From Escherichia coli (GTDB taxonomy: Bacteria; Pseudomonadota; Gammaproteobacteria; Enterobacterales; Enterobacteriaceae), in assembly GCF_041248615.1 (NCBI RefSeq), contig NZ_CP158426.1: a stretch of 64,000 bases of DNA; one strand, given 5' to 3'. Of the stretch, positions 3,194 through 53,158 are shown one piece after another. How positions within the stretch are numbered: position 1 is the first letter of the stretch; each line of letters begins with the position of its first letter. The position numbers were made by a program, and so were the translations under genes. The notes below the pieces were generated by a model that did no database searches, was not told where the DNA came from, and worked only from the letters and a program-made list of their open reading frames with translations.

Positions 3194-3269
3194 GTTGGAT
3201 CCTTACCGGTAAATCGTGCCGGTTAAAAGCGGCGTTAGGTTGGGGATTCTTAAGTTCCTTAAACCGGGT

Positions 3270-3352
3270 GCCGGATGCGGCGTGAACGCCTTATCCGGCC
3301 TACATATGGGCGACTCGTAGGCCTGATAAGACGCGCCAGCATCGCATCAGGC
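3270..3352. repeat. REP/BIME element (two inverted REP units)
   Basis: gccggatgcggcgtgaacgccttatccggcctaca followed by inverted copy gtaggcctgataagacgcgccagcatcgcatcaggc in the flgK-flgJ intergenic. Confidence 0.7.
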
Positions 3353-3368
3353 ACCGAACGTCGGAGCC

Positions 3369-3668
3369 TCATTTATGCTTCGGCGATAACTGCTTCACAA
3401 TCATCGCCGCGATCCCAATCCCGTGCTGCTGCGCTAGGGTGTTACACAACTCATCGTCATAAAACCCCTGCATCATGCGCACCGAATCGCTGTTAAATGG
3501 GTTATCTTTCGAATCAAACAACTCGTTGGTTTTACGCATCTCTTTGAGCATGTTGCGTAAAAAAATCGCCTCAAACTGTTCCGCGGCCTGCCTGATATCA
3601 TTGGCCTGAACCTTCGGCCCCATTAACGCATCGCTGCCGTCAATCCCGCCACTGGCATTCACTTTCAT
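3369..3668 (-). CDS. lfgJ: FlgJ-like rod-binding protein (short, N-terminal rod-binding domain only; no muramidase domain)
   Basis: 99 aa; AAEQFEAIFLRNMLKEMRKT motif typical of FlgJ N-domain; ATGA overlap with flgI. Confidence 0.7.
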   Translation of the reverse strand: MKVNASGGIDGSDALMGPKVQANDIRQAAEQFEAIFLRNMLKEMRKTNELFDSKDNPFNSDSVRMMQGFYDDELCNTLAQQHGIGIAAMIVKQLSPKHK

Positions 3669-4783
3669 CAGATCACCTCCAGGTCGGCATCCAGCGCGCC
3701 CGCTTCATGCAGCGCCTGCAAAATCGACATAATGTCGTCCGGCGTCGCGCCTAAACTGTTCAGCGCATTGACCAGCGTTTTCAGGCTGCTCGACTCCGGC
3801 AAACTCACCACGCCAGGGCGCGCATGATTCACCGCGATATTACTCTGCGGCGTTACCGCCGTGCGCCCGCCCGCAAAGGCATTCGGCTGGCTGACGTTGC
3901 TGGTTTCGTTAATCGAAACGGTCAAACTACCGTGCGACACCGCCGCCGCGTGTAGCGCAACGCCATCGCCCATCACCACCGTGCCGGTACGCGAGTTAAA
4001 CACCACGCGAGCGCGGATTTTCTCCGCCTGCACCTGCACATCGTCCAGTTGCGACATAAACGCCACCCGCGCACCGGGGCTGGTAGGCGCGCGCACGGTG
4101 ACGTTGGTGGAACTCTGCGCCGTGGCAATGCCGCCAAACGAGGCGTTGATCGCCGCTGCAATATTATTGGCATCTTTAAACGACGGGCGTTTCAGATTGA
4201 GCGTGATGGTATCGCCCATCTGAAAATCGCTGGGGATCTCACGCTCCACCGTTGCGCCGTTGGGAATTAACCCGGCGGTCGGCGTGTTAACCGTCACGCT
4301 GGAACCGCTGGCCCCGGTGGCGTTCATCCCGCCCACCACCACGCTGCCCTGCGCGAGGGCATAAACTTCGCCATCCGCGCCGTGCAACTGCGTCAGCAAC
4401 AAAGTGCCGCCACGAATACTTTTCGCATCGCCAATCGACGAAACGGTGACATCAATGGTCTGCCCGCGCGAGTACATCGGCGGCAGCGTGGCGCTCACCG
4501 CCACCGCGGCGACGTTTTTCACCTTCGGGTCGATTTTATTCGGCAACTGCACGCCAAACTGGCGCAGCATATTGGTGATGGTCTGGTTAGTGAATTTGAC
4601 CTGGTTTTTATCGCCCGTACCGTCGAGGCCTACCACCAGGCTGTAGCCCACCAGTTGGTTTTCACGCACGCCCTGTACGTTGACCAACGACTCCAGCGAT
4701 TGCGCCAGCGCCACACCGGGCAGCGCCAGGCTTACGGCGATCGCTGCGGCCTTTATCCAGTTTTGCATTGCACTCTCCGGCAT
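3668..4783 (-). CDS. lfgI: Flagellar P-ring protein FlgI
   Basis: 371 aa, signal peptide, strong FlgI pattern ([12 protein letters not shown]...). Confidence 0.9.
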
Positions 4784-40577: not shown

Positions 40578-40671
40578 GTGGGTGTTGTGTTTAGGGGCGG
40601 GGTAAGACTACGGGTCAGGGCAAGATTACGAAAGCCCGGAGCCTGTCCATCATTCTGTGTAAATGCCTTTC

Positions 40672-40990
40672 TCAGAAGTGACCGTCAAGGCGGTCACCGA
40701 ACTCGATAATAAAGCGACTCTTCCCTATCCGCCAGTCCTGAAGTGGCATCGTCCATTTTTGCGACGCTGACTGGAAAGCCAGCCACACCACTTTTTTCAC
40801 CGACTCATCTGTCGGGAACACTTTCCGTTTCTTTATCGCATGTGTGATGATGCTATTCAGCGATTCGATTGCGTTAGTGGTGTAGATAACCTTGCGGATC
40901 GCCTCCGGGTACACGAAGAATGTGGCAACATTCGGCCAGTTTGCCCGCCAGCTGCGACTTATCTGCGGGTACCGTGCATCCCATTCCTTC
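40672..40990 (-). pseudogene. IS256-family (mutator-type) transposase, C-terminal fragment only
   Basis: Encodes ..ANWPNVATFFVYPEAIRKVIYTTNAIESLN...KWTMPLQDWR.. which matches only the last ~105 aa of IS256-like transposases. Confidence 0.6.
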
Positions 40991-41001
40991 CCAGGGAAAG
41001 A

Positions 41002-42119
41002 TTACGAAAGCCCGCTCCCCGCAAGGACTGACGCCAGATAGTTTCTGTCCATGGCTGCTTTTCGCATCTTACGTCTTAACCCTGCCTTGAATACCTTATC
41101 ATTCGTCAAAATATTAATAGCGATGTGCCGTATCCCTGAAAATAATTCTGCTGCATTTCCTCTTCTTATTTTGCAGTCGTCTTCATTCATTACCACGTCC
41201 AGACGCCAGTGCAGCTTATTCTCCACGTGCCAGTGGTTTCGGATTGCTGTGGCGAACTTCTCTGCGGTTAAATCAGCAGAACTAATATAATATCTGACCG
41301 TCATTTCTGGCTCTTTCTTTTGTTCTGCTATTATTGACCGAAAGGAGACTGCCACGCATAATTTCTTCAGACCTTTCCATTCAAACGTGAAATCAATAAG
41401 TTCATCAGGGACATCGCAAACAATGTGAAGACGGATTTCTTCTCTGCCGTGACTCTTTTCACTCATTGCGTAACTGTCATGCTCTGGATTATTTAATTCT
41501 TTCAGCGGAAATTCTCGAAGGCTTTATTTAGCCGCCCCTGGTTTCCTTTTACAGCGAATAAATAATCACCTCCCTGTTTTTGTATCTTCTCTGCAATATC
41601 TTTCTGGCAACCCATCGCATCAGTTGTGATGATTTTTCCTTTAATATCCAGCATGTTAAGAAGTTCTGGGATAGCTGTAATTTCATTGGATTTCTCATCC
41701 GTCCTGATCTGTCCGATGACCAGACTGTGCATTGTTGAGAACGCACTAATGACATGAATCGCTCCCTTGCGGCGACTCTTGTCATAAGAATGCCGGAGTG
41801 TTTTTCCATCAATTGCGATGACGTCTTTATCATCTGAAGTATGGCAATCTCGCATCCAGTTAATAAAGCACTCGTGAAATTTTGCAGGACTGATACAGGA
41901 TACAACTCTGGCGATGGTATCGTGAACAGGAATACCATTTTCAAAATCACCGTATTGTTTTAAAAAATCGAGATGTGTTTCCCCAAAATCCTCTATATCT
42001 TCCCAACCTTCCGCACCCGAAATAACAGCACAAATAGTCAACAGTAGAATATCCGATAATTTATGTTCCACTTTCCAGGCTTGTCTGTAATCGGGGATAA
42101 TAGAAATATGCCCCATCAA
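41002..42119 (-). pseudogene. ISAs1-family (H-repeat-associated) transposase, frameshifted
   Basis: Two ORFs (41502-42119 and 41002-41466) cover N- and C-terminal parts; reading continues in another frame across 41466-41505 ([15 protein letters not shown]), showing a small deletion near KAFE|NF. Confidence 0.75.
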
Positions 42120-42306
42120 TTTTTTAAGTTCTATTTTGTTCTCCTTAATTATGTAAGGAGTATTTGATCATGTATAAGCAATAAAAAACAGCTTTAGGTA
42201 ATGAGGAATATCTCAATTTTTAAGCATAAAATGCGAATTGTTTAGTACAAAAAAGCAGCGTTACGTGATCTTTCCCTGCACTTCACCCTAACTTTAATTT
42301 AACTTC

Positions 42307-42346
42307 AAGAAGTATTAAGGCCTCAATAGCGAACTTAATACTTCTT
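42307..42346 (-). terminator. AT-rich hairpin downstream of Rhs immunity gene (weak terminator candidate)
   Basis: aagaagtattaag-N14-cttaatacttctt perfect 13-bp inverted repeat. Confidence 0.3.
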
Positions 42347-42354
42347 AAAGAATA

Positions 42355-42732
42355 TCACTCCTGACCAAAATCTTTCCACACTAATGCATGAGACTTTGAT
42401 TTATCACCCAAAAATTTACTTACATCTTTCCAAAGTAAAGAATTGCTATCGGTCGCAGTGACTATTGCCTCTATAAGCCCTGTAGCTACAACTGTGGCCA
42501 ATTCATCATCAATCGAGACCATACCATCTTCGACATGTTTAAATATTTTTTCTCTTTCAATATCACCCATTTCATAAAAATTTTTTACAATCGTTTTTCC
42601 AATCTGAGAGAACAACATAACCACCGGTGGAGTTTCTGGATGCCAGTATTCATTAGCTAATGAGACTGTCTCAGACAAAACAGTGGAAAACGATGCCATT
42701 TTTTCTATATAATTAGCAATATATTGGTTCAT
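42355..42732 (-). CDS. Putative immunity protein for the Rhs C-terminal toxin
   Basis: 125 aa AT-rich ORF immediately downstream of the rhs stop; family not recognised. Confidence 0.55.
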   Translation of the reverse strand: MNQYIANYIEKMASFSTVLSETVSLANEYWHPETPPVVMLFSQIGKTIVKNFYEMGDIEREKIFKHVEDGMVSIDDELATVVATGLIEAIVTATDSNSLLWKDVSKFLGDKSKSHALVWKDFGQE

Positions 42733-45700
42733 TACTTGCCTCCCAAAGCATTCTGTAAATCCTGAAGAACGTTTTCTGCTGCTGCTCGATCCCCTGGAGA
42801 TGCTGTTGGATTCTTATCCAACCAATCCTGTAAAGCCCTTGTATAATCCTGTGCTTTCAATACATGTCCTCTACCACCAACTTTTTCACCTGTGGCCAAT
42901 TCATAACGAACAGCATCTGCTGTGCTTCCACTTCCTACTTTTGCATTTGGCCGATAAAGATCGTCTATAATATTTTTCAAATTTGAATCTGTAACGTCAG
43001 GTTTTCCCATCTTCTGTCGCAATTCATCTTTATACCGTTCATGCTGCATACGATCTCTTGCGCTATTCTCATCTTCTGGTCCCCATCCTCCCGGGCTTCC
43101 CGTACTGCCACCACCCAGGCAGTTCTTCTCTTCCTCCGTCAAATCCTTCCCGACATTTGGATTCTCTTTTGATGAATCATCATTTCCAAACACGCTGGAA
43201 AAAGCACCATAGGGATCTCGCCAGAATTCCATTTGACTTTGTGCATTTAATAATTCGGCTTCACCCTGCATCTCCATACTTTTCTCAATCGCGTCCCCAA
43301 CAGCCTCGCGATTGTTGTATATTATTATACCACCACCAATAACCACCGTACCGACTGCCGCACCGACTAACATCCCCGGAGGGCCTCCTACCGAACCGAT
43401 CTCTGTACCTACTTCAGAACCAGTTCCCATGGCAGTTAATGCTCCTGCGCCCAACGCCGCACTTAATCCCAGCGGATCCAGCCGTTGCACCGGGTTCAGT
43501 GGATACGCATACAGGTTCCATCCCCCCTTCAGCCCAATCGGATCCTGGGTGATATACCTCCCCTGTAGCGGGTCATAGTACCGGTGACGGTTGTAGTACA
43601 GCCCCGACTCCTCATCATACTGCTGCCCCGGCAGACGGAGTGACTGTTGAAGGTGCTGCGTGCTTTCCTCTCCCAGCAGGTTTCCCCACTCGTCATACTC
43701 CCCGCGCCACGCCGTTTCCCCTTCCGGGCTGATAAGCGCCTGCGGCAGCCCACGGTGGTCACAGTGGTAAAGATGAAGTTTCCTCTCCGGGATGTATTCC
43801 GCCTCCAGTTGCGCCGCCATCTGTTCCGCCGTCAACCCACACTGTGCAAGCCACTGCTGGCTTTCTTCACTCACGCTGCCCTGCCGCAGTTCCCGCTCCA
43901 GCCTCCCCAGCATCACCGCCAGCTCCGCCGGTAGCGTCACACCCGTGTCCTCCTGCAACACCTCCGCCAGGCTACGGTGCCGCGCCTTCGCCTGTTCGCC
44001 ATTCTCTGTTTCGATTCTCAGGAGCGGCGTGAAGCTCCCCGGCTGGTATACCGTCTGGATACGCGTGGTGTCGGTCTGTACCGTCGTCAGCCTGTCGCCG
44101 TCCCACCCGTACCAGGTCACCTCCGGTTTACGCGACAGCGACATCCACCCCGTCAGGTCACGCTCCCGCCGCCACACCCGTTTTCCCGTCCGGCGGCCCA
44201 GCGGGTCATAGAGGTAGCGGCTCTCCACCTGTGGCTCGCCGTGCTGTATCCGCGTGTAGAACACCAGGCGGTGCTGGCTGTCGTAATGGTAGTGGTGCGT
44301 CCGCTCGTCGTGCATCCGTATCACCCCTTCCGGGATACGGTCCGTCTTCTCCGCCAGCCTGCCGTATTCATCGTAGCGGTAGACATAGTGCGCATCTTCC
44401 GTGATGCGGTTATCCGGCCACGCCGTGAAGGTGCTGTCCGGGTGCAGTTCCGGGTCCGGCAGCCGGTTTCCTGCCGGGTCCGTCGCATACGGGATATCAA
44501 TGTCCAGGTTCGCTGCCGTGGTGTGGACGCCCGTCAGCCTTCCCGTGTCGCTGTAACGGTACTCCCGGCTCTCCTGCGGGCCGCTGATGCGAATTAGCTG
44601 TCCGTTGTCGTTCCAGTCGTAGTCACGGTCAAGCTGCGGAAGGTTCAGGTGCCTGCTCCGGAGCTGGCCGCTGGTATTCCAGGCGGTGGCAAGCTCATAT
44701 GCCTCCCCGCCGAAGCTGCGGGCCGTCTCACGGTGCAGCCGGTCCCGCGTGTACTCGACCAGTGGCGTACCACCCAGCTTCATTCCCGCAAGATAACCGC
44801 TGCCATACGTCAGCCACTCCACCGGCGGCAGACCGTCCGGCTCCTGACGGGTCGCCAGCCCCTGTTCGCTGTACGCGTGCTTCGTCTCATGCTCCCACAG
44901 CATCTCCCCCGTCTCCGGGTTCTCCACCGTCTGCCGTTCGCCCGTCAGGCGGCCTTTATCGTCGTGGCCGTAGTGGACCGCCACACGGTGGCCTTCGCTG
45001 ATATGGCTGATTTCTGTCAGCCAGCCGTGCTCATCATACTGCCACTGCTCCGCCGGGTCGCCGTTCACCGTCCGGTGCGTGATGCGGTCCGACGCATCGT
45101 AATGCCAGAGGGTGATAAGCCCCTCATCTTCACTCTGCGTGAGTTTTCCGGTCAGGTCATAGTGGTAACGTTGCGTCCGCCCGTCAAAGCCGCGCTGCTC
45201 CGTCAGCCTGTCCACCGGGTCATACCGGAACGTGGACTGGCTGCCGTTCTCGTTGGTCAGCACGGTGGTGCGACCGGCGGCGTCATACCCCATGCTGCGC
45301 GTCAGTCCGCCTTCCGTCACACTCACCGGACGCCCGCGTTTATCATATTCGATGGTGCTGCGTTTACCGTCCGGTGATATCGTCGCTGTCAGGTCGCCTG
45401 CGGTGCTGTACTCATAACGGGTTTCACGCCCCTGCGCATCCTTCTGACTGACCAGTTGGCCACGCGGGTTATAACTGCTGTAAGTGCTGATGCCTTCTTC
45501 CCGGTGAACGGCGATTTGTTGACCGTACCGGTCATACTCATACCGCGTCGTGTACCCCGAGCAGTCCGTAAACGCCTGAAGCTGACCGTACCGGTTTCGC
45601 GTTATTCTCCGCATCACCCCGGTTCCGTCTTCCACCGCGCCGGGCAGGCTACTGCGGGGGGAGTCATAAAACCAGCGCGTAATGTTACCGTTGCGCGAGA

Positions 45701-47231
45701 TCTCTTCCGCCAGCCTGCCCTGACGGTCATATTTCCGGCTGCTGCGCAGCCCGTCCGGGTACGTCACTGACGTCAGTTGCAACTGGTTGTTGTAACCATA
45801 CCGTACCGTCCTGCCGTCCGGAAGTATCACTGAAGTCAGCTTTCCAGACGCCATATGCAGCCGATACTCCGTCCGCCGTCCCGCCGCATCCGTCTGCGCC
45901 TTCAGCCTCCCCGCCTCATCATACTCGCTGCGGGTGATGCTCCCGTCCGCATGTTCCTTCTTCACCACCCGCTTCAGGCCACCTTCGCCTTCCGTGTACA
46001 GCACCTCCCGCCTGTTCAGGCTGTCCGTGATGATTACCCGGCTCTCTCCGTACTCAAAGCGGTAGTCCAGCCCCTCCGGGTTGACCTGCTCCGTCACCCG
46101 GCCGGTATCATCATACCGGTAGCGGCTCTCCGGCCTCCCCGCATAATGGTGCGCCACCATCCGCCCGGCGTGCGCCACATCATAAGTAACCCCGCGCACC
46201 TGCGTCCCGCTGCGGTCATACACCGCCCGCAGTTCTCCGCTGGCCGTGTACGTGTAGCGCGCCAGCGGCGCAGTCGGCTGTTCATCCGGGTATGCCGGGT
46301 CGTGTGTCAGCCACACCGCCTCCAGCCGGATACCGTTATCGGCACCGTATTCTGTACCGACGGGCAGCGTATCGGGGAAAACCTGAGAAGAGGAAACAGA
46401 ACGGGGACCGGCAGGGGAAGATAAGGAAGACTCGCGCTGTTTACGGGACGCTTCCGCCCGCTGTGACTGTGTGGTCAGCGCCAGGTGAAAACAGCGGCCC
46501 GCGCCGTCCGTCACCCTGGTGATTTCACCAGCCAGTTCGCCTGCGGCCTCGCGGTGGAAAGTCAGTGAACGCCCGAAGCCGTCCACCACGCCCGTCAGCA
46601 CCCGGTATGCGGGTGGCTCCGGCGGCAACACCTCGTCCACCCCCGGCACCCGCTCCGGCCAGCCGAGTACCAGCCACTGCCCGGTTGTGCTGACAGCCAT
46701 CATATAGGTGTGTGGACTCAGGCGGACCGCTTCCGGCAACGCCCGCCAGAGCCGGGCCAGCGGGTGGCCTTTCTGCTGTTTCAGCACCCCGCCCCGCGCC
46801 AGCCAGAACGACTCGCTGCGGCTGTAGCTTATCTCGCCGGGAAACAGCGGCTCAAAGTGAATGCTCCTGCCGCCGCTGTCGTTGAGTATCAGGCCTTCAT
46901 CGCGTATCTGTAAGCGGATATCGAAGGGGGCTTTCCAGCCGGGACCAAACACCCCCACCGGCGCGGGCGTCCTGGTCCGGTAGCTGCTGTAGGCGCGGAA
47001 AAGAACAAACGGCAGCGGGCCGGACAGTGCCAGGTCGGTTTCAGCAGGCAGCACCTTCGCTCCCAGCAGCGGGTTTACCGGATTACCCTTCTGCTCCTCT
47101 ATCGGGCTGTTGGGACATACCGAACAGGCCACACCGGTTGGCGCACCTATCAGCACCCCTGCTGAACCCTGCACAATATCCAGTCCCTTGCGGGTCATGT
47201 CACCCTGCCGCGCCGCCGGTTTTCCACCCAT
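42732..47231 (-). CDS. rhs: PAAR-domain Rhs repeat protein with polymorphic C-terminal toxin domain (T6SS effector)
   Basis: 1499 aa; N-terminal [15 protein letters not shown] motif, YD repeats, DPxGL demarcation (RLDPLGL) then ~243-aa tip; tip (42735-43463) is markedly AT-rich relative to the core. Confidence 0.9.
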
Positions 47232-47306
47232 GAATCAATTCCTTCTGCTTTTAATATGGTTTATCTGGTCACTGCACCAGTTCCGTTTTAATTTTTTGCA
47301 CCTGAC

Positions 47307-49448
47307 TCAAAATTGCCGCATATCCGGCATTCCGGGGGGTAAATCTTTCGGCACAGGCGCATCCGGTACAGGTTGTGTGGCACCACAGTTCCAGTTAATC
47401 ACCGGCGCATCACCGTTCACATCCGACTCTCCTTCCAGATGAATGTGCGTACCATTGAGAAATATGCTTCCGTCCTTCGTCAGCACCAACCTTGCCTTAC
47501 CGCAGCAGAGTTCCAGATGCTCACCGGCAGAATAAACTGCTGTTTGTCCGGTGTTTTCCTTCATCGTCTTGCCCACCGAGAAGGTGACGTTATTCCCTAC
47601 ATTGACGCTGTAGCCCATTCCCACCATCAGTGATTTATGCAGCCCTACCTGTGAGGACTGCAACAACGCCACCGAGGTATTCATGATGCCGCCTACCGTC
47701 GTCTGGTAAGCCACGCCCACCGTCAGCGCACGAATGATCCCCACCTTTTCAACCTGGTTTGAACCCACTTTGACAATCTGGTTGCTGCCTACCGTTTCCA
47801 CCTGGTTGACACCAACCGTCTGTATCTGATTAACGCCAATGTTCTGGATCTGGTTATTGGTAACGGTGATCGCCTGGTTGTTACCTATTTTTTCGGCATG
47901 GTTGTTTATCACATCCGTGGTGCGGTTATTCAGCACCTCGGTGTTCATGTTCTTCTGCGCGTGGATGTAGACCTGTTCTTTCCCTGTCGCATCGTCAAAC
48001 TTCAGTTCATTAAACCCGCTGCCCTTATAGGTTTTCGAACGAATGGTCATCTGCGTCTTTGTTCCCGGCAGGCTGCCGGGGGTGCGGTTTTCCTGGTGGT
48101 AGGTACGCCCCATAATAATCGGCTGGTCCGGATCGCCGTTGAGGAAGTCCACAATGACTTCCTGACCCACACGCGGTATCGCCAGGTTGCCAAAGCCGGT
48201 GCCTGCCCACGCCTGTGCCACACGGATCCAGCATGAACTGTCCTGGTTTGACGGGTTATAGCGGTCCCAGTTAAATTTCACCCGCACGCGGCCATGTTCA
48301 TCACAGAAGATTTCTTCTCCTGCCGGTCCCGTCACGACGGCGCTCTGCGGGCCGTCCACCAGCGGTTTCAGCAACGGCTGTGGCCGCCATGTTCTGTCTG
48401 CCGGTATTACCGCAAAGTGGTTATTCAGCGTGGTACCTGAACCCCTGCGTCCCGGCACCGCCTGCGGCTGCTCGCCGTGCAGTTCACTTGCCACCACCTG
48501 CCATTCCCGGTTCAGGTTCGCCTGCGGATGCCCCGTCAGCGCAATTCGCCGTCCCGGCCATATCTCCGGCGAACGGCTTGTTCCGCGCGCCACTTCTGCG
48601 TTGTTTCGCCAGCCATCCATCTGCCAGCAGGCAAAGTTCTGCCCGTGGGCACCCTTGAAACGTCCGGGGTAGTCATACACTTCATACTGTGTGCGCTGGT
48701 AATCCTGGTGCTGGCCTTCCTGATCAAAACGCCCTGCCCAGCCGGGTCGTTTAAAGGTGTAGTCTTTGGTCACCACGGAAGATGGGCGGATTTGTGCGCT
48801 GTAGAGGAACTGGCTGATGCATAGGGTGCTCACCTCGGTACGGGTGTTCGGATTCCAGGGGATCTCAAAGGACTCCGGCAGATAACGCACGGTGTCGCAC
48901 AGGACCAGGCTCTGGTCGGTACTTTTTTGCGCGTGCTCCTCATAAAAGAAGATGCCTTCCTCCGCCGCCATCCGGCACAGGAAATCGTAATCGGTTTCGC
49001 CGTACTGGACACAAAACTCACGGGAAGGATGCGGCTCGCTGAACAGCGGACTCCACTCGGTCACCCCGTTTTCTTTCAGGATCGTCGCGAGTATGCTTTC
49101 GATGTCCTCATTCTGGAAGATACGGAAGTTCTGGCGCAGCCCTGTGCGCCACAGCGGTGGGCACACCTTCATGCTGTACAGCATCTGGTTTTTGTCGTTC
49201 TCCCCCAGTTCAAACCAGGTCACCACACCTTTCACCCGGCGCTGTACGTCATCGCCCTGCCATACCGTCAGGTAGGCCATTTTGTCCAGCACCTGCGCAA
49301 ATTCAAGGGAGAGAAACTGCTGGCTGACCAGAGAGAGATCGAGGGAAAAGAGCGAAGAGAGTGACTGGTTCAGATGAAAGGAGACCACCGCAAACGCGTC
49401 CGGTGGCAGGCCGTCCACTTCCAGCGTGAAACGTAATCCGGTTGACAT
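47307..49448 (-). CDS. vgrG: T6SS spike protein VgrG (TssI)
   Basis: 713 aa; gp27/gp5-like VgrG pattern, position between hcp and PAAR-rhs; GGAGG RBS. Confidence 0.9.
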   Translation of the reverse strand: MSTGLRFTLEVDGLPPDAFAVVSFHLNQSLSSLFSLDLSLVSQQFLSLEFAQVLDKMAYLTVWQGDDVQRRVKGVVTWFELGENDKNQMLYSMKVCPPLWRTGLRQNFRIFQNEDIESILATILKENGVTEWSPLFSEPHPSREFCVQYGETDYDFLCRMAAEEGIFFYEEHAQKSTDQSLVLCDTVRYLPESFEIPWNPNTRTEVSTLCISQFLYSAQIRPSSVVTKDYTFKRPGWAGRFDQEGQHQDYQRTQYEVYDYPGRFKGAHGQNFACWQMDGWRNNAEVARGTSRSPEIWPGRRIALTGHPQANLNREWQVVASELHGEQPQAVPGRRGSGTTLNNHFAVIPADRTWRPQPLLKPLVDGPQSAVVTGPAGEEIFCDEHGRVRVKFNWDRYNPSNQDSSCWIRVAQAWAGTGFGNLAIPRVGQEVIVDFLNGDPDQPIIMGRTYHQENRTPGSLPGTKTQMTIRSKTYKGSGFNELKFDDATGKEQVYIHAQKNMNTEVLNNRTTDVINNHAEKIGNNQAITVTNNQIQNIGVNQIQTVGVNQVETVGSNQIVKVGSNQVEKVGIIRALTVGVAYQTTVGGIMNTSVALLQSSQVGLHKSLMVGMGYSVNVGNNVTFSVGKTMKENTGQTAVYSAGEHLELCCGKARLVLTKDGSIFLNGTHIHLEGESDVNGDAPVINWNCGATQPVPDAPVPKDLPPGMPDMRQF

Positions 49449-49657: not shown

Positions 49658-50176
49658 TTATGCTTCCAGCGGTGCGCGCCAGTCGTCGGCACCGGAGGTG
49701 CCAGACTTGACGTGTTCCCACTCTATTTTGCGGTAGGCCAGTGAAACTTCGAGCAACTGGGTGAACTCGCGTTTCGCCGGATCCTGGCAATGCGGCATAT
49801 GCAGTTTCATATCGACAATCGTCGAATCGGTCAGGCGGGTGGTGAAATAATGCTCCTGTTTGCCTTCCACAGAGGTACGCCACCAGTGAAGTTCAGTGGT
49901 TGGCAGCATTTCGCCGGAGGCCAGTGCGTTGTACATCAGCGGAACAGCTTTGTTCAGCGCCACGGTAAAAATGAACGGCTTGTGAGCACGCTGACCCGCA
50001 GGCTGGCCGGACTGAGGATCGGTCGGGACAGTAACGTTATGCAGGAATTCCTGCACCAGCATCTCGTCTTCGTGCCCCTGCACATAGATGTTGCCGACAG
50101 AATCAGCGGTAAATGCACCTGCAGTAATATTTCCCTGGGTCTGACCAGTGATGGAGATATAACACGGTGTTGGCAT
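49658..50176 (-). CDS. hcp: T6SS tube protein Hcp (TssD)
   Basis: 172 aa; Hcp family pattern. Confidence 0.9.
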   Translation of the reverse strand: MPTPCYISITGQTQGNITAGAFTADSVGNIYVQGHEDEMLVQEFLHNVTVPTDPQSGQPAGQRAHKPFIFTVALNKAVPLMYNALASGEMLPTTELHWWRTSVEGKQEHYFTTRLTDSTIVDMKLHMPHCQDPAKREFTQLLEVSLAYRKIEWEHVKSGTSGADDWRAPLEA

Positions 50177-50491: not shown

Positions 50492-50872
50492 TTTTGAGAT
50501 ATTCCTTAAAAATACCCACTTAATCAATCACAAAACAAATATATAAACAAGCAATCATCAGATTAGCTTATGTTTAATGAAATTATTATATAATTCAATA
50601 AGTTACATAAAAACTCTATATTTAAATTATTGCCATAATACACCTGACGCGAATTTCGAAGGTTCACACAATCTATTTAACGCTTGCAGAATACCTCTCT
50701 TTACGATCGATAAAAAGTCCTTTTCTTATTTATTTTGAAGCGTAGAATGCGGGGTGATGAAGGAGTGGTGATTTTATTTTCACCGCCATTAGGGCGGCAT
50801 TGCCGATATTTTTTTGCGGTACAAATATGCCGTGTTCATGGCCTGTACGAGATAACATGACGGATCACTTTT

Positions 50873-51373
50873 ATGAGCAAAAAATTTGAAGGCAGCGTCG
50901 CGCCTCGCGAGCGTATAAATATATCCTATGTCCCGAAGACGGACGGCCAGACGGCTGAAGTGGAGCTTCCGCTTAACATGCTCGTTGTCGGCGATACCGG
51001 AAATACGCAGGAGACATCCCCACTGGATGAACGTCAGGCAGTTTCCGTTAACAAGCACAATTTCGGTGCGGTGATGGCTGAAGCAGCCATTGGCCTCAAT
51101 TTTACCGTCCCCGCCACGCTGAAGGGAAGCACAACGGACGATGAACTGAATGTGGCGCTGAATATCAAGTCACTGGATGATTTTTCACCGGACAGCGTGG
51201 CCCGGCAGGTTCCGGAAGTTAATAAATTGCTGGAATTGCGTGAAGCACTGACTGCGCTGAAGGGGCCGATGGGCAACCTTCCGGCATTCCGTACCCAGCT
51301 CCAGGCATTGCTGGAAAATGAGGAGTCCCGCGAGCAGTTGCTCAAAGAAATCGGCCAAGTGAGTGGGAAATAA
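50873..51373 (+). CDS. tssB: T6SS sheath small subunit TssB
   Basis: 166 aa; TssB/VipA family pattern; first gene after the AT-rich region. Confidence 0.9.
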   Translation: MSKKFEGSVAPRERINISYVPKTDGQTAEVELPLNMLVVGDTGNTQETSPLDERQAVSVNKHNFGAVMAEAAIGLNFTVPATLKGSTTDDELNVALNIKSLDDFSPDSVARQVPEVNKLLELREALTALKGPMGNLPAFRTQLQALLENEESREQLLKEIGQVSGK

Positions 51374-51407
51374 CCACCACTATTTCATTAAACAGGGTTA
51401 TCCAGAC

Positions 51408-51632
51408 ATGGCGGCACACAAAAATATCTCCGGGAAAAACCCCCTCTCTGACGAAGACATTTTGCAGGCGGTTTACCGGGTATGTTTCAGCCCGTCCGGT
51501 GAAATCAACCGGGATGGCGTGGATGCGCTGATTACAACACTGGATCGCCGTATCAGTGATCTATTGGATGAGATTATCCATTTTTGTGAGTTTCAGCAGA
51601 GCGCGTCGCACTGGCAGCGCGTACTTCACTGA
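51408..51632 (+). CDS. Short ORF resembling a diverged N-terminal segment of TssC (paralogous fragment)
   Basis: 74 aa from ATG 51408; VDALITTLDRRISDLLDEIIHFCEFQQSASHWQ aligns with VDSMIADIDERISRQMDVIIHAPAFQQVESFWR of the adjacent full-length TssC. Confidence 0.45.
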   Translation: MAAHKNISGKNPLSDEDILQAVYRVCFSPSGEINRDGVDALITTLDRRISDLLDEIIHFCEFQQSASHWQRVLH

Positions 51633-51682
51633 TGGCGAAAAGCCGGTTTCAGAAACACAGCTAAAACAGAAGGATTTTCAGT

Positions 51683-53158
51683 ATGTCTTTACAGGAAGAG
51701 GAACTCGTTTCCAGTCATGCCGGGCAGCCTGAGCAGGCATCGTCGCTGCTTGATCAAATCATGGCACAGACCCGTATTCAGCCCGGTTCGGAAGGTTATG
51801 ACGTTGCCCGCCAGGGTGTGACAGCCTTTATTGCCAGCATCCTGCAATCCACTGCATCTGCCGAACCGGTCAATAAACTGGCCGTGGACAGCATGATTGC
51901 AGATATTGATGAACGCATCAGCCGCCAGATGGATGTCATCATCCATGCGCCTGCCTTTCAGCAGGTCGAGTCGTTCTGGCGCTCACTGAAAACCATGGTG
52001 GATCGCGTTGATTTCCGTGAAAACATCAAGGTCAACGTGCTTCATGTCACCAAGCAGGAACTTCTGGAAGACTTTGAGTTTGCGCCAGAAATTATTCAGT
52101 CCGGATTTTATAAGCACGTTTATTCGTCCGGTTTCGGACAGTTTGGCGGTGAACCCATCGCTGCCGTGCTGGGCGCTTATGAGTTCAAAAATACCGCGCC
52201 TGACATGAAACTGCTGCAATACGTCAGTGCCGTGGGCGCAATGGCGCACGCACCGTTCCTGTCCTCCGTTTCCCCGGAGTTTATGGGGCTGAACTCGTGG
52301 ACCGAACTGCCTAATATCAAAGATCTTTATGCCATCTTTGAAGGTCCGGCCTACACCAAATGGCGCGCCCTGCGAGACTCGGAAGATTCGCGCTATATAG
52401 GGCTTACGGCACCCCGCTTCCTGCTTCGCCAGCCTTATTCACCAACAGATAACCCTGTTAAGAACTTTAACTATCACGAAGATGTCAGCCGGAACCACGA
52501 AGATTATCTGTGGGGTAATACGGCCTGGATGCTGGCGTGCAATGTCGCAGACAGTTTTGCCAAATACCGCTGGTGTCCAAATATCATCGGTCCGCAAAGC
52601 GGCGGCGCAGTGAAAGATCTGCCGGTGCATCTGTTCGAAACGATGGGTCAGATTCAGGCCAAAATCCCAACCGAGGTGCTGGTCACCGATCGCCGCGAAT
52701 TTGAACTGGCTGAAGAGGGTTTTATCACCCTTACCATGCGTAAAGACTCTGATAATGCAGCCTTTTTCTCTGCAAACTCGGTACAAAAACCGAAGCACTT
52801 TCCGGGCAAAGACGCAGAAACCAACTATAAGTTGGGTACGCAGCTTCCTTATCTCTTCATCATCAATCGGTTAGCGCACTACATCAAGGTGTTGCAGCGT
52901 GAACAACTGGGGTCATGGAAAGAAAGGAGCGACTTAGAGAGGGAGCTTAATACCTGGATCCGTCAGTATGTTGCCGACCAGGAAAACCCGCCTGCGGACG
53001 TGCGCAGCCGCAAGCCTCTGCGTGCTGCCAGAGTTGAGGTTATGGATGTGGAAGGCGAACCCGGCTGGTACCAGGTCGCGCTGAGCGTGCGGCCCCATTT
53101 TAAATTTATGGGGGCAAACTTTGAGCTTTCCCTGGTTGGCCGGTTAGACAGGGAGTAA
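51683..53158 (+). CDS. tssC: T6SS sheath large subunit TssC
   Basis: 491 aa; TssC/VipB pattern throughout. Confidence 0.95.
   Translation: MSLQEEELVSSHAGQPEQASSLLDQIMAQTRIQPGSEGYDVARQGVTAFIASILQSTASAEPVNKLAVDSMIADIDERISRQMDVIIHAPAFQQVESFWRSLKTMVDRVDFRENIKVNVLHVTKQELLEDFEFAPEIIQSGFYKHVYSSGFGQFGGEPIAAVLGAYEFKNTAPDMKLLQYVSAVGAMAHAPFLSSVSPEFMGLNSWTELPNIKDLYAIFEGPAYTKWRALRDSEDSRYIGLTAPRFLLRQPYSPTDNPVKNFNYHEDVSRNHEDYLWGNTAWMLACNVADSFAKYRWCPNIIGPQSGGAVKDLPVHLFETMGQIQAKIPTEVLVTDRREFELAEEGFITLTMRKDSDNAAFFSANSVQKPKHFPGKDAETNYKLGTQLPYLFIINRLAHYIKVLQREQLGSWKERSDLERELNTWIRQYVADQENPPADVRSRKPLRAARVEVMDVEGEPGWYQVALSVRPHFKFMGANFELSLVGRLDRE

Follow-up and report, generated by a model that had tools for sequence, protein, structure and literature searches.

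A small open reading frame between the type VI secretion genes tssB and tssC of Escherichia coli as a probable drifting remnant of a tssC 5' end

We analyzed a short open reading frame (ORF) that lies between tssB and tssC, the genes for the small and large sheath subunits, in a type VI secretion system (T6SS) cluster carried on a 64,000-nucleotide (nt) stretch of Escherichia coli chromosomal DNA (contig NZ_CP158426.1 of assembly GCF_041248615.1), referred to here as the window. The product of this ORF is homologous to a segment near the N terminus of TssC. Comparison of its relatives suggests that it is probably the truncated 5' end of an ancestral tssC, a mini-gene that was formerly under selection and is now drifting and dispensable. 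On the best reading, the copy in the window is still intact but drifting, a gene remnant that the T6SS does not need.

Homology of the small ORF to TssC

An earlier note, made from the letters of the window alone, had taken the ORF for a diverged copy of the TssC N-terminal region standing beside a complete tssC, and had proposed pairwise and profile alignments to TssC N termini; both alignments are significant and bear out the proposal. By BLASTP, the ORF and the adjacent TssC are identical at 17 of 40 positions (43%; 38.5 bits; pairwise E = 6e-9), with residues 48 to 87 of an 89-residue form of the ORF matching TssC residues 63 to 102. Alignment of a profile of 8 ORF sequences with a profile of 20 TssC N termini, using hhalign, gave a probability of 97.7% and E = 2e-12 over 45 columns, and placed residues 28 to 72 of the 74-codon form of the ORF, whose numbering is used from here on, against TssC residues 58 to 102. 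At the same place, the Pfam model VipB (PF05943) scores 17.6 bits (E = 0.002; only profile positions 1 to 33 of 301; below the cutoff of 27) and TIGR03355 scores 19.7 bits (E = 3e-4; below the cutoff of 271.5). Diverged ORFs from two further lineages independently hit that part of TIGR03355 as well (E = 0.028 and 0.011), and scans of the small ORF against Pfam and NCBIfam at E values up to 1 returned only TssC models. When the small ORF was used as a tblastn query, the same TssC segment was matched in dozens of diverged tssC genes. Equivalents of D69, D76, H88, and W99, which are invariant in the TssC family, are retained in the ORF. Judged by these sequence comparisons, the similarity is real homology and not chance.

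The similarity is old. The best local DNA alignment between the ORF region and the tssC 5' region spans 51 nt at the homologous place and is no better than the best of 300 shuffles; ORF residues 1 to 27 have no significant similarity to TssC residues 1 to 57; and a HMMER search for a donor with the ORF over 1.84 billion representative proteins found no TssC closer than the neighboring one and none at E < 0.001. The DNA alignment, the lack of a TssC at that E value in the library-wide search, and the subthreshold single-model scores would also fit an ORF that is unrelated to TssC and resembles it by accident. This explanation is exceedingly improbable, as the profile-profile alignment effectively refutes it; in addition, the same segment is matched in many diverged tssC genes and by three diverged ORF lineages independently, the family invariants are kept, and the ORF lies directly upstream of tssC.

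Besides members of the ORF family, the library-wide search returned WD40-repeat proteins matching the motif AVYRVCFSPSGE (ORF residues 21 to 32; 51468-51503). These are weak, multirepeat matches to WD40-type proteins and look like a chance likeness to the repeat consensus. A ClpV-binding helix in the ORF N terminus was also considered and rejected: profiles of ORF residues 1 to 33 and TssC residues 1 to 60 align with E = 0.08 (local) and 0.25 (global), and a likeness seen by eye between LSDEDILQA and LLDQIMAQ (from the SLLDxIMxQT motif of the subfamily) is unsupported by the profile alignment.

The features of the locus are as follows; all lie on the plus strand.

50873-51373, plus: tssB, sheath small subunit, 166 amino acids (aa); stop codon TAA at 51371-51373; PF05591, E = 1e-51; annotated as tssB in strain TUM14771
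51374-51407, plus: leader of the small ORF, 34 nt, with a Shine-Dalgarno (SD)-like AGGG at 51394-51397; it occupies the place of the short tssB-tssC spacer of ORF-less relatives
51408-51632, plus: small ORF, 74 codons and TGA; ECs_0232, and Z0263 by numbering; WP_000718848.1
51489-51623, plus: TssC-like segment of the small ORF (residues 28 to 72), homologous to TssC residues 58 to 102 by hhalign, BLASTP, and subthreshold PF05943 and TIGR03355 matches
51516-51581, plus: most constrained core of the small ORF (residues 37 to 58), GVDALITTLDRRISDLLDEIIH; lowest raw ratio of nonsynonymous to synonymous differences (pN/pS) between lineages; putative counterpart of the TssC domain-3 helix
51633-51682, plus: leader of the complete tssC, with an SD/CsrA-type AAGGA at 51670-51674, 8 nt before the ATG
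51683-53158, plus: complete tssC, sheath large subunit, 491 aa; PF05943 and PF18945; TIGR03355, 704 bits; own N terminus with SLLDQIMAQTR (ClpV-helix region)

The gap between tssB and tssC is thus 309 nt (51374-51682), the small ORF starting 34 nt past the tssB stop codon and tssC starting 50 nt past the ORF stop codon. The small ORF is 74 aa long and carries no PF18945, whereas the adjacent gene at 51683-53158 has the full TssC architecture, and residues 21 to 488 of its product align to Vibrio cholerae VipB (5MXN). Read-through or fusion of the small ORF with tssB or tssC was considered and rejected, as the coordinates place the three genes in different frames. On the plus strand the ORF is open from 51363 to 51632, and its product would have 89 aa if read from a GTG and 74 aa if read from the ATG at 51408. 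Of the two forms, conservation is confined to the 74-codon one, and in the majority E. coli allele the ATG is not preceded by any other start codon.

Distribution, origin, and breakage of the insert

To describe the distribution of the insert, we used a scan with TssC over one genome per species (68 loci). A tssB-tssC gap of about 290 to 310 nt with an ORF-like match was found only where TssC is at least 87% identical to that of the window, namely, in E. coli-type loci, Escherichia albertii, Citrobacter youngae, Atlantibacter subterranea, and Yokenella regensburgei. All loci with TssC at 81% identity or less have a spacer of a few tens of nucleotides and no ORF; these range from Lonsdalea, Rahnella, Buttiauxella, Trabulsiella, and Yersinia nurmii onward to Halomonas, Photobacterium, and Helicobacter. 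Profile searches added further carriers, including many intact 70-aa versions, in Salmonella enterica, C. portucalensis, and metagenomes, as well as a third lineage represented by two loci (L071 and L072). The ORFs thus fall into three lineages: Escherichia; Salmonella/Citrobacter/Atlantibacter/Yokenella; and L071/L072.

The inserts of all lineages can be aligned over their whole length. In all three, the ORF starts 29 to 34 nt past the tssB stop codon, which is the distance of the tssC start in ORF-less relatives; the resemblance of the small-ORF leader to the short spacer of those relatives was judged by eye only. Because the insert is confined to loci with TssC at 87% identity or above, is alignable over its full length, and is replaced elsewhere by a short spacer, the simplest reading of the sequences is that the 5' end of tssC was partially duplicated, or displaced, once and long ago in the ancestor of this tight enterobacterial T6SS sublineage. 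One such event would account both for a short copy at the place where tssC originally started and for a complete tssC, equipped with its own leader, farther downstream. In its simplest form, this would be a tandem duplication of the tssC leader and roughly the first 100 codons; displacement by an incoming tssC would give the same picture. The upstream copy would have kept the start codon and the SD-like sequence and lost about 30 N-terminal codons. The earlier note had suggested a relic of recombination between tssBC alleles. A recombination or duplication relic is indeed the best account of the origin; a recent exchange between present-day alleles does not hold, given that the library of 1.8 billion proteins contains no closer TssC and that the insert is common to three deeply diverged lineages.

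The same note had proposed conservation of the frame in related loci as a check. The outcome is mixed. The frame is kept in most of them, specifically in E. coli, other E. albertii isolates, Atlantibacter, Salmonella, C. portucalensis, and several metagenomic loci; E. albertii NBRC 107761, C. youngae, and Y. regensburgei have lost it. The altered copies are as follows.

E. albertii NBRC 107761: ATG lost, several insertions or deletions (indels), and an 18-nt deletion
C. youngae: in-frame TGA at codon 21
Y. regensburgei: +1 frameshift and a TAG
Locus L072: early stop codon
Locus L071: stop codon lost

Database entries for E. coli and Salmonella likewise include truncated or frameshifted variants, some of which may be assembly errors; database products of 98 to 107 aa that reach into the tssC leader are frameshifted or stop-loss variants of the small ORF. 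In loci where the ORF is broken, tssB and tssC stay conserved, and the T6SS sheath genes are therefore maintained without it. The copy in the window has no lesion. Of 5,426 complete E. coli genomes, 2,253 to 2,269 carry the locus. Among 60 E. coli matches sampled at even intervals, 59 aligned with the ORF end to end without gaps and were annotated as a coding sequence (the 60th was a partial match of 74 nt), and the ORF was covered at 80% or more in 2,240 of 2,253 genomes.

A 58-codon ORF in another frame (51556-51732, plus strand) spans the end of the small ORF, the tssC leader, and the tssC start; databases show it only as the tail of frameshifted or stop-loss small-ORF versions, and it is not an independent conserved product. 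On the metagenomic contig L073 (1767-2653), tssC retains only 234 aa, and the next gene is YafT-like; this T6SS cluster is decayed, and the upstream 70-aa ORF is still open.

Selection on the reading frame

Between lineages, the ORF bears the signature of a protein under constraint. In the ORF frame, raw pN/pS is 0.45 to 0.65 (Fisher's P = 8e-7 to 5e-4 for seven of eight pairs; P = 0.023 for the remaining pair), whereas in the other two frames of the same alignment, used as a control, it is about 0.9 to 1.5. A pairwise maximum likelihood codon model (GY94-type, F3x4) gave nonsynonymous-to-synonymous rate ratios (omega) of 0.19 to 0.45 between lineages, and omega = 1 was rejected in six of seven pairs (P = 6e-6 to 2e-3). 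Synonymous saturation in the ORF equals that in tssB and tssC. Constraint is strongest at residues 37 to 58, where raw pN/pS between lineages is 0.23 to 0.46; residues D46 to H58 are invariant across Escherichia ORF sequences, and a core of the form LDxRIxxLxDxIIH is conserved across lineages. In a neutral simulation with substitutions only, the start codon and open frame survive with a probability of 0.011 per lineage at the synonymous distance of the flanking genes and 0.14 per lineage at the ORF's own distance. Given these low neutral survival probabilities, three open lineages are not explained by drift.

Within lineages, the ORF changes as a neutral sequence would. We found omega values of 1.35 to 1.84 in Escherichia, 0.74 to 0.89 in the Salmonella/Citrobacter group, and 0.55 in the third lineage, none of which differs from 1, and the three codon positions share the differences evenly. 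When the within-lineage comparisons are pooled, omega values of 0.25 (P = 7e-6) and 0.35 (P = 0.0014) are rejected. For the same pairs, pN/pS is 0.03 to 0.19 in tssB and 0.01 to 0.07 in tssC. The best reading of these sequence data is that the ORF was under moderate purifying selection as a protein in the past and drifts neutrally within present lineages.

This combination bears on the possibility that the ORF is pure junk, a nonfunctional pseudogene ever since the duplication, whose open frame in E. coli reflects luck and youth and whose deep signature is an artifact of saturation, alignment, or composition. The within-lineage omega near 1, the flat distribution over codon positions, the broken copies in several lineages, and a frequency of disruption in the Salmonella/Citrobacter group that is, by our own estimate, about that of neutral drift are all what such a pseudogene would show. 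Nevertheless, we consider this explanation quite unlikely: the deficit of nonsynonymous differences appears in the ORF frame and is absent from the two control frames, the likelihood ratio test rejects omega = 1 in six of the seven between-lineage pairs, survival of start and frame in three lineages has a neutral probability of about 1e-6 to 3e-3 (indels ignored), and constraint is concentrated in one helix.

The reading that we favor, a formerly selected and now drifting tssC fragment, would have the following history. For most of it, moderate purifying selection on the ORF as a protein would have preserved a probable sheath-related role, most plausibly TssB binding. In present lineages, E. 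coli included, neutral-like evolution and repeated inactivation would have set in while tssB and tssC remained strongly constrained.

Several points weigh against this reading. About 99% of the E. coli genomes with this locus have an intact ORF, as do most Salmonella- and Citrobacter-type clusters. Synonymous sites are saturated between lineages, making the deep omega values rough, and two pairs gave runaway estimates. Within lineages, each pair offers only 14 to 29 substitutions, and an omega of about 0.5 is not rejected (P = 0.066), which leaves room for weak ongoing selection. Simultaneous relaxation in all three lineages is somewhat unparsimonious, and the locus is a recombination mosaic, which blurs comparison of its rates with those of the flanking genes. 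Tandem duplication, although the simplest form of the founding event, would look the same as allelic displacement by an incoming tssC. Finally, the reading presumes from the sequence that the small ORF is translated.

Predicted product, neighboring sequences, and alleles

An AlphaFold2 model built from the eight-sequence alignment (mean predicted local distance difference test [pLDDT] score, 79) contains a short helix at residues 15 to 26 and a long helix at residues 35 to 73. A Foldseek search of the PDB with this model returned only generic helical hairpins, none at E = 0.001 or better. The product is probably a small two-helix protein in which the long helix corresponds to TssC residues of about 58 to 102, a segment that includes the domain-3 helix lying against the TssB C-terminal helix. 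When the TssC of the window is aligned to Pseudomonas aeruginosa TssC1 (5N8N), ORF residues 37 to 57 would correspond to TssC1 S66 to M86, as judged from the alignment ranges and the published structure (PMC5807055). In the sheath, that helix forms the three-helix bundle of domain 3 with TssB1 D117 to L133 (PMC5807055), and a TssB helix at residues of about 100 to 130, together with the TssC N-terminal region, mediates TssB-TssC binding (PMC3840085). The suggestion of the earlier note that the ORF overlaps the part of TssC that interlocks with TssB is therefore upheld, as the segment includes the helix that bundles with the TssB C-terminal helix. Binding of TssB by a free copy of this helix would be a reasonable mechanism for the period of selection. 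A free fragment might in addition interfere with sheath assembly, as the note had proposed; neutral evolution within lineages argues against an important role at present.

A product that still functions in E. coli as a T6SS accessory protein, that is, as a free mimic of the TssC domain-3 helix that would bind the C-terminal helix of TssB and thereby either chaperone TssB or restrain sheath assembly, appears unlikely from the sequences. For such a role speak the near-universal intactness and annotation of the ORF in sampled E. coli genomes (59 of 60, and 2,240 of 2,253 at 80% coverage or more), the core conserved across lineages, a fairly confident helical prediction (pLDDT, 79), the retained start codon and SD-like sequence, and the contact that the homologous TssC region makes with an essential TssB helix (PMC5807055, PMC3840085). 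Against it stand the Escherichia omega of 1.35 to 1.84, compared with 0.03 to 0.16 for tssB and tssC in the same pairs; destruction of the ORF in E. albertii NBRC 107761, C. youngae, and Yokenella, whose tssB and tssC are conserved; and a helix-breaking Leu-to-Pro change in the core of several Citrobacter-group variants. It is similarly doubtful that the Z0263/ECs_0232 family is a genuine, hitherto overlooked T6SS-2-lineage accessory protein of Escherichia, Salmonella, and Citrobacter that arose from the tssC 5' end as a free copy of the domain-3 helix, attaches to the essential C-terminal helix of TssB so as to hold TssB before assembly or limit sheath polymerization, and is still weakly selected.

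Compared with TssC/VipB itself, residues 28 to 72 of the ORF are homologous to the N-terminal region (the start of PF05943; TIGR03355 positions of about 38 to 84), keep its invariants, and are predicted to form a long helix as in TssC (PMC5807055). The ORF differs in having 74 residues instead of about 490, in lacking the strands of domains 1 and 2 and the gpW/gp25-like domain, and in scoring far below the family cutoffs. Its 27 N-terminal residues are unlike the TssC N terminus or the ClpV-binding helix (VipB residues 15 to 28), and it evolves 5 to 50 times less constrained than tssC.

Gene remnants can arise from partial tandem duplication or from recombinational displacement of a gene end, as with the displaced "orphan" fragments of rhs and cdiA loci. 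Like these, the small ORF is a truncated, same-orientation copy of an adjacent complete gene, is restricted to one sublineage, decays, and is neutral within lineages. Unlike them, it is a 5' fragment with its own start signals rather than a displaced 3' tip, and it carries a clear signature of past purifying selection. A second comparison is with small proteins and domains that act on the sheath: TagJ/HsiE1 binds the TssB N terminus and ClpV, and the ClpV N domain binds VipB residues 15 to 28 (PMC4632598). If functional, the ORF product would resemble these in being small, nonessential, lineage restricted, encoded in the cluster, and active on a sheath subunit; it differs in having no sequence relationship to them and in its apparent derivation from a sheath protein itself.

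The leader of the complete tssC is itself well conserved, in that its 3' portion of about 45 nt, from about 51640 and including the AAGGA at 51670-51674, is highly conserved in all lineages. An AGGA motif upstream of tssC and repression of tssC by CsrA have been described (PMC13141884, citing Kim 2022 and Wang 2017). Cotranscription of tssB and tssC in enterohemorrhagic E. coli (EHEC) is disputed: one study finds a single polycistronic operon and cites a report of separate transcription units (PMC13141884; Kim 2022). The 309-nt gap and the conserved AAGGA leader are the sequences at issue in that dispute.

These facts, together with an open frame in which amino acids change freely within lineages, count in favor of an insert that acts in cis or through its translation only, with a spacer of about 300 nt uncoupling tssB from tssC and translation guarding against Rho-dependent polarity or tuning the TssB:TssC ratio. 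We regard such a role as very unlikely. The amino acid sequence is constrained between lineages, to differing degrees along the ORF, and lineages in which tssC is still conserved can carry early stops and frameshifts. A search of the insert against Rfam gave no match at E values up to 1, RNAalifold gave no convincing conserved structure (351 columns; consensus, -17.2 kcal/mol; covariation term, -1.56), and the tssB-tssC spacer showed nothing resembling a promoter or terminator.

The ORF had been described in the earlier note as possibly unannotated, which is not the case. The NCBI annotation pipeline (PGAP) calls the 74-codon form as hypothetical protein WP_000718848.1 and does likewise in all E. 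coli genomes sampled. The copy of O157:H7 Sakai is ECs_0232, flanked by impB (ECs_0233) and impC (ECs_0231). In EDL933, TssB is Z0264 and TssC is Z0262 (PMC6730261), so the small ORF should be Z0263. In the literature, the only mention of ECs0232/Z0263 that we found is in a gene list, and no description of an ORF located between tssB and tssC, or of its origin, was found. A separate observation concerns Sakai, where impC/tssC (ECs_0231; 3237-4628 of locus L082) is annotated at only 1,392 nt, compared with 1,476 nt in the window, next to an intact small ORF. This short annotation agrees with a published report of a vipB (Z0262) nonsense mutation and of T6SS degeneration in O157:H7 (PMC12981562).

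The finding is modest, a curiosity and not a new system. It gives an identity to a hypothetical gene, ECs_0232/Z0263, that is present in about 40% of complete E. coli genomes, including EHEC O157:H7, and that has been counted in virulence-gene lists without one. It also offers a clean, datable case in which a fragment of a structural protein appears to have survived as a small ORF, long selected and now decaying, which is of some interest for the origin of small proteins. The unusual 309-nt tssB-tssC gap deserves a control when expression constructs are made. Should the fragment still bind TssB, sheath assembly would have in it a natural tool or regulator; present evidence favors a dispensable element.

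The allele of the ORF in the window (51400-51640) is rare, with identity of 99% or more in 11 of 2,253 E. coli genomes, 95 to 99% in 286, and 90 to 95% in 1,954; strain TUM14771 matches positions 50800-51800 of the window at 100% identity. When the window is compared with the majority E. coli allele, pS is 0.195 in tssB and 0.066 in tssC (0.013 in its first 110 codons), and all 11 amino acid differences in the ORF lie in codons 1 to 39. The contrast in pS and the confinement of these differences place a recombination breakpoint inside the ORF, near 51520.

The cluster adjoins yafV/ivy/fadE and is T6SS-2 of the literature. Local gene order is hcp (49658-50176, minus strand), tssB, the small ORF, tssC, and tssE (from 53165). 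Upstream of hcp, at about 40668-49448, the annotation of TUM14771 indicates vgrG, a gene of 4.5 kb for an RHS core protein and a small ORF downstream of it, an ISEc1 transposase, and part of another transposase gene annotated as a fragment.

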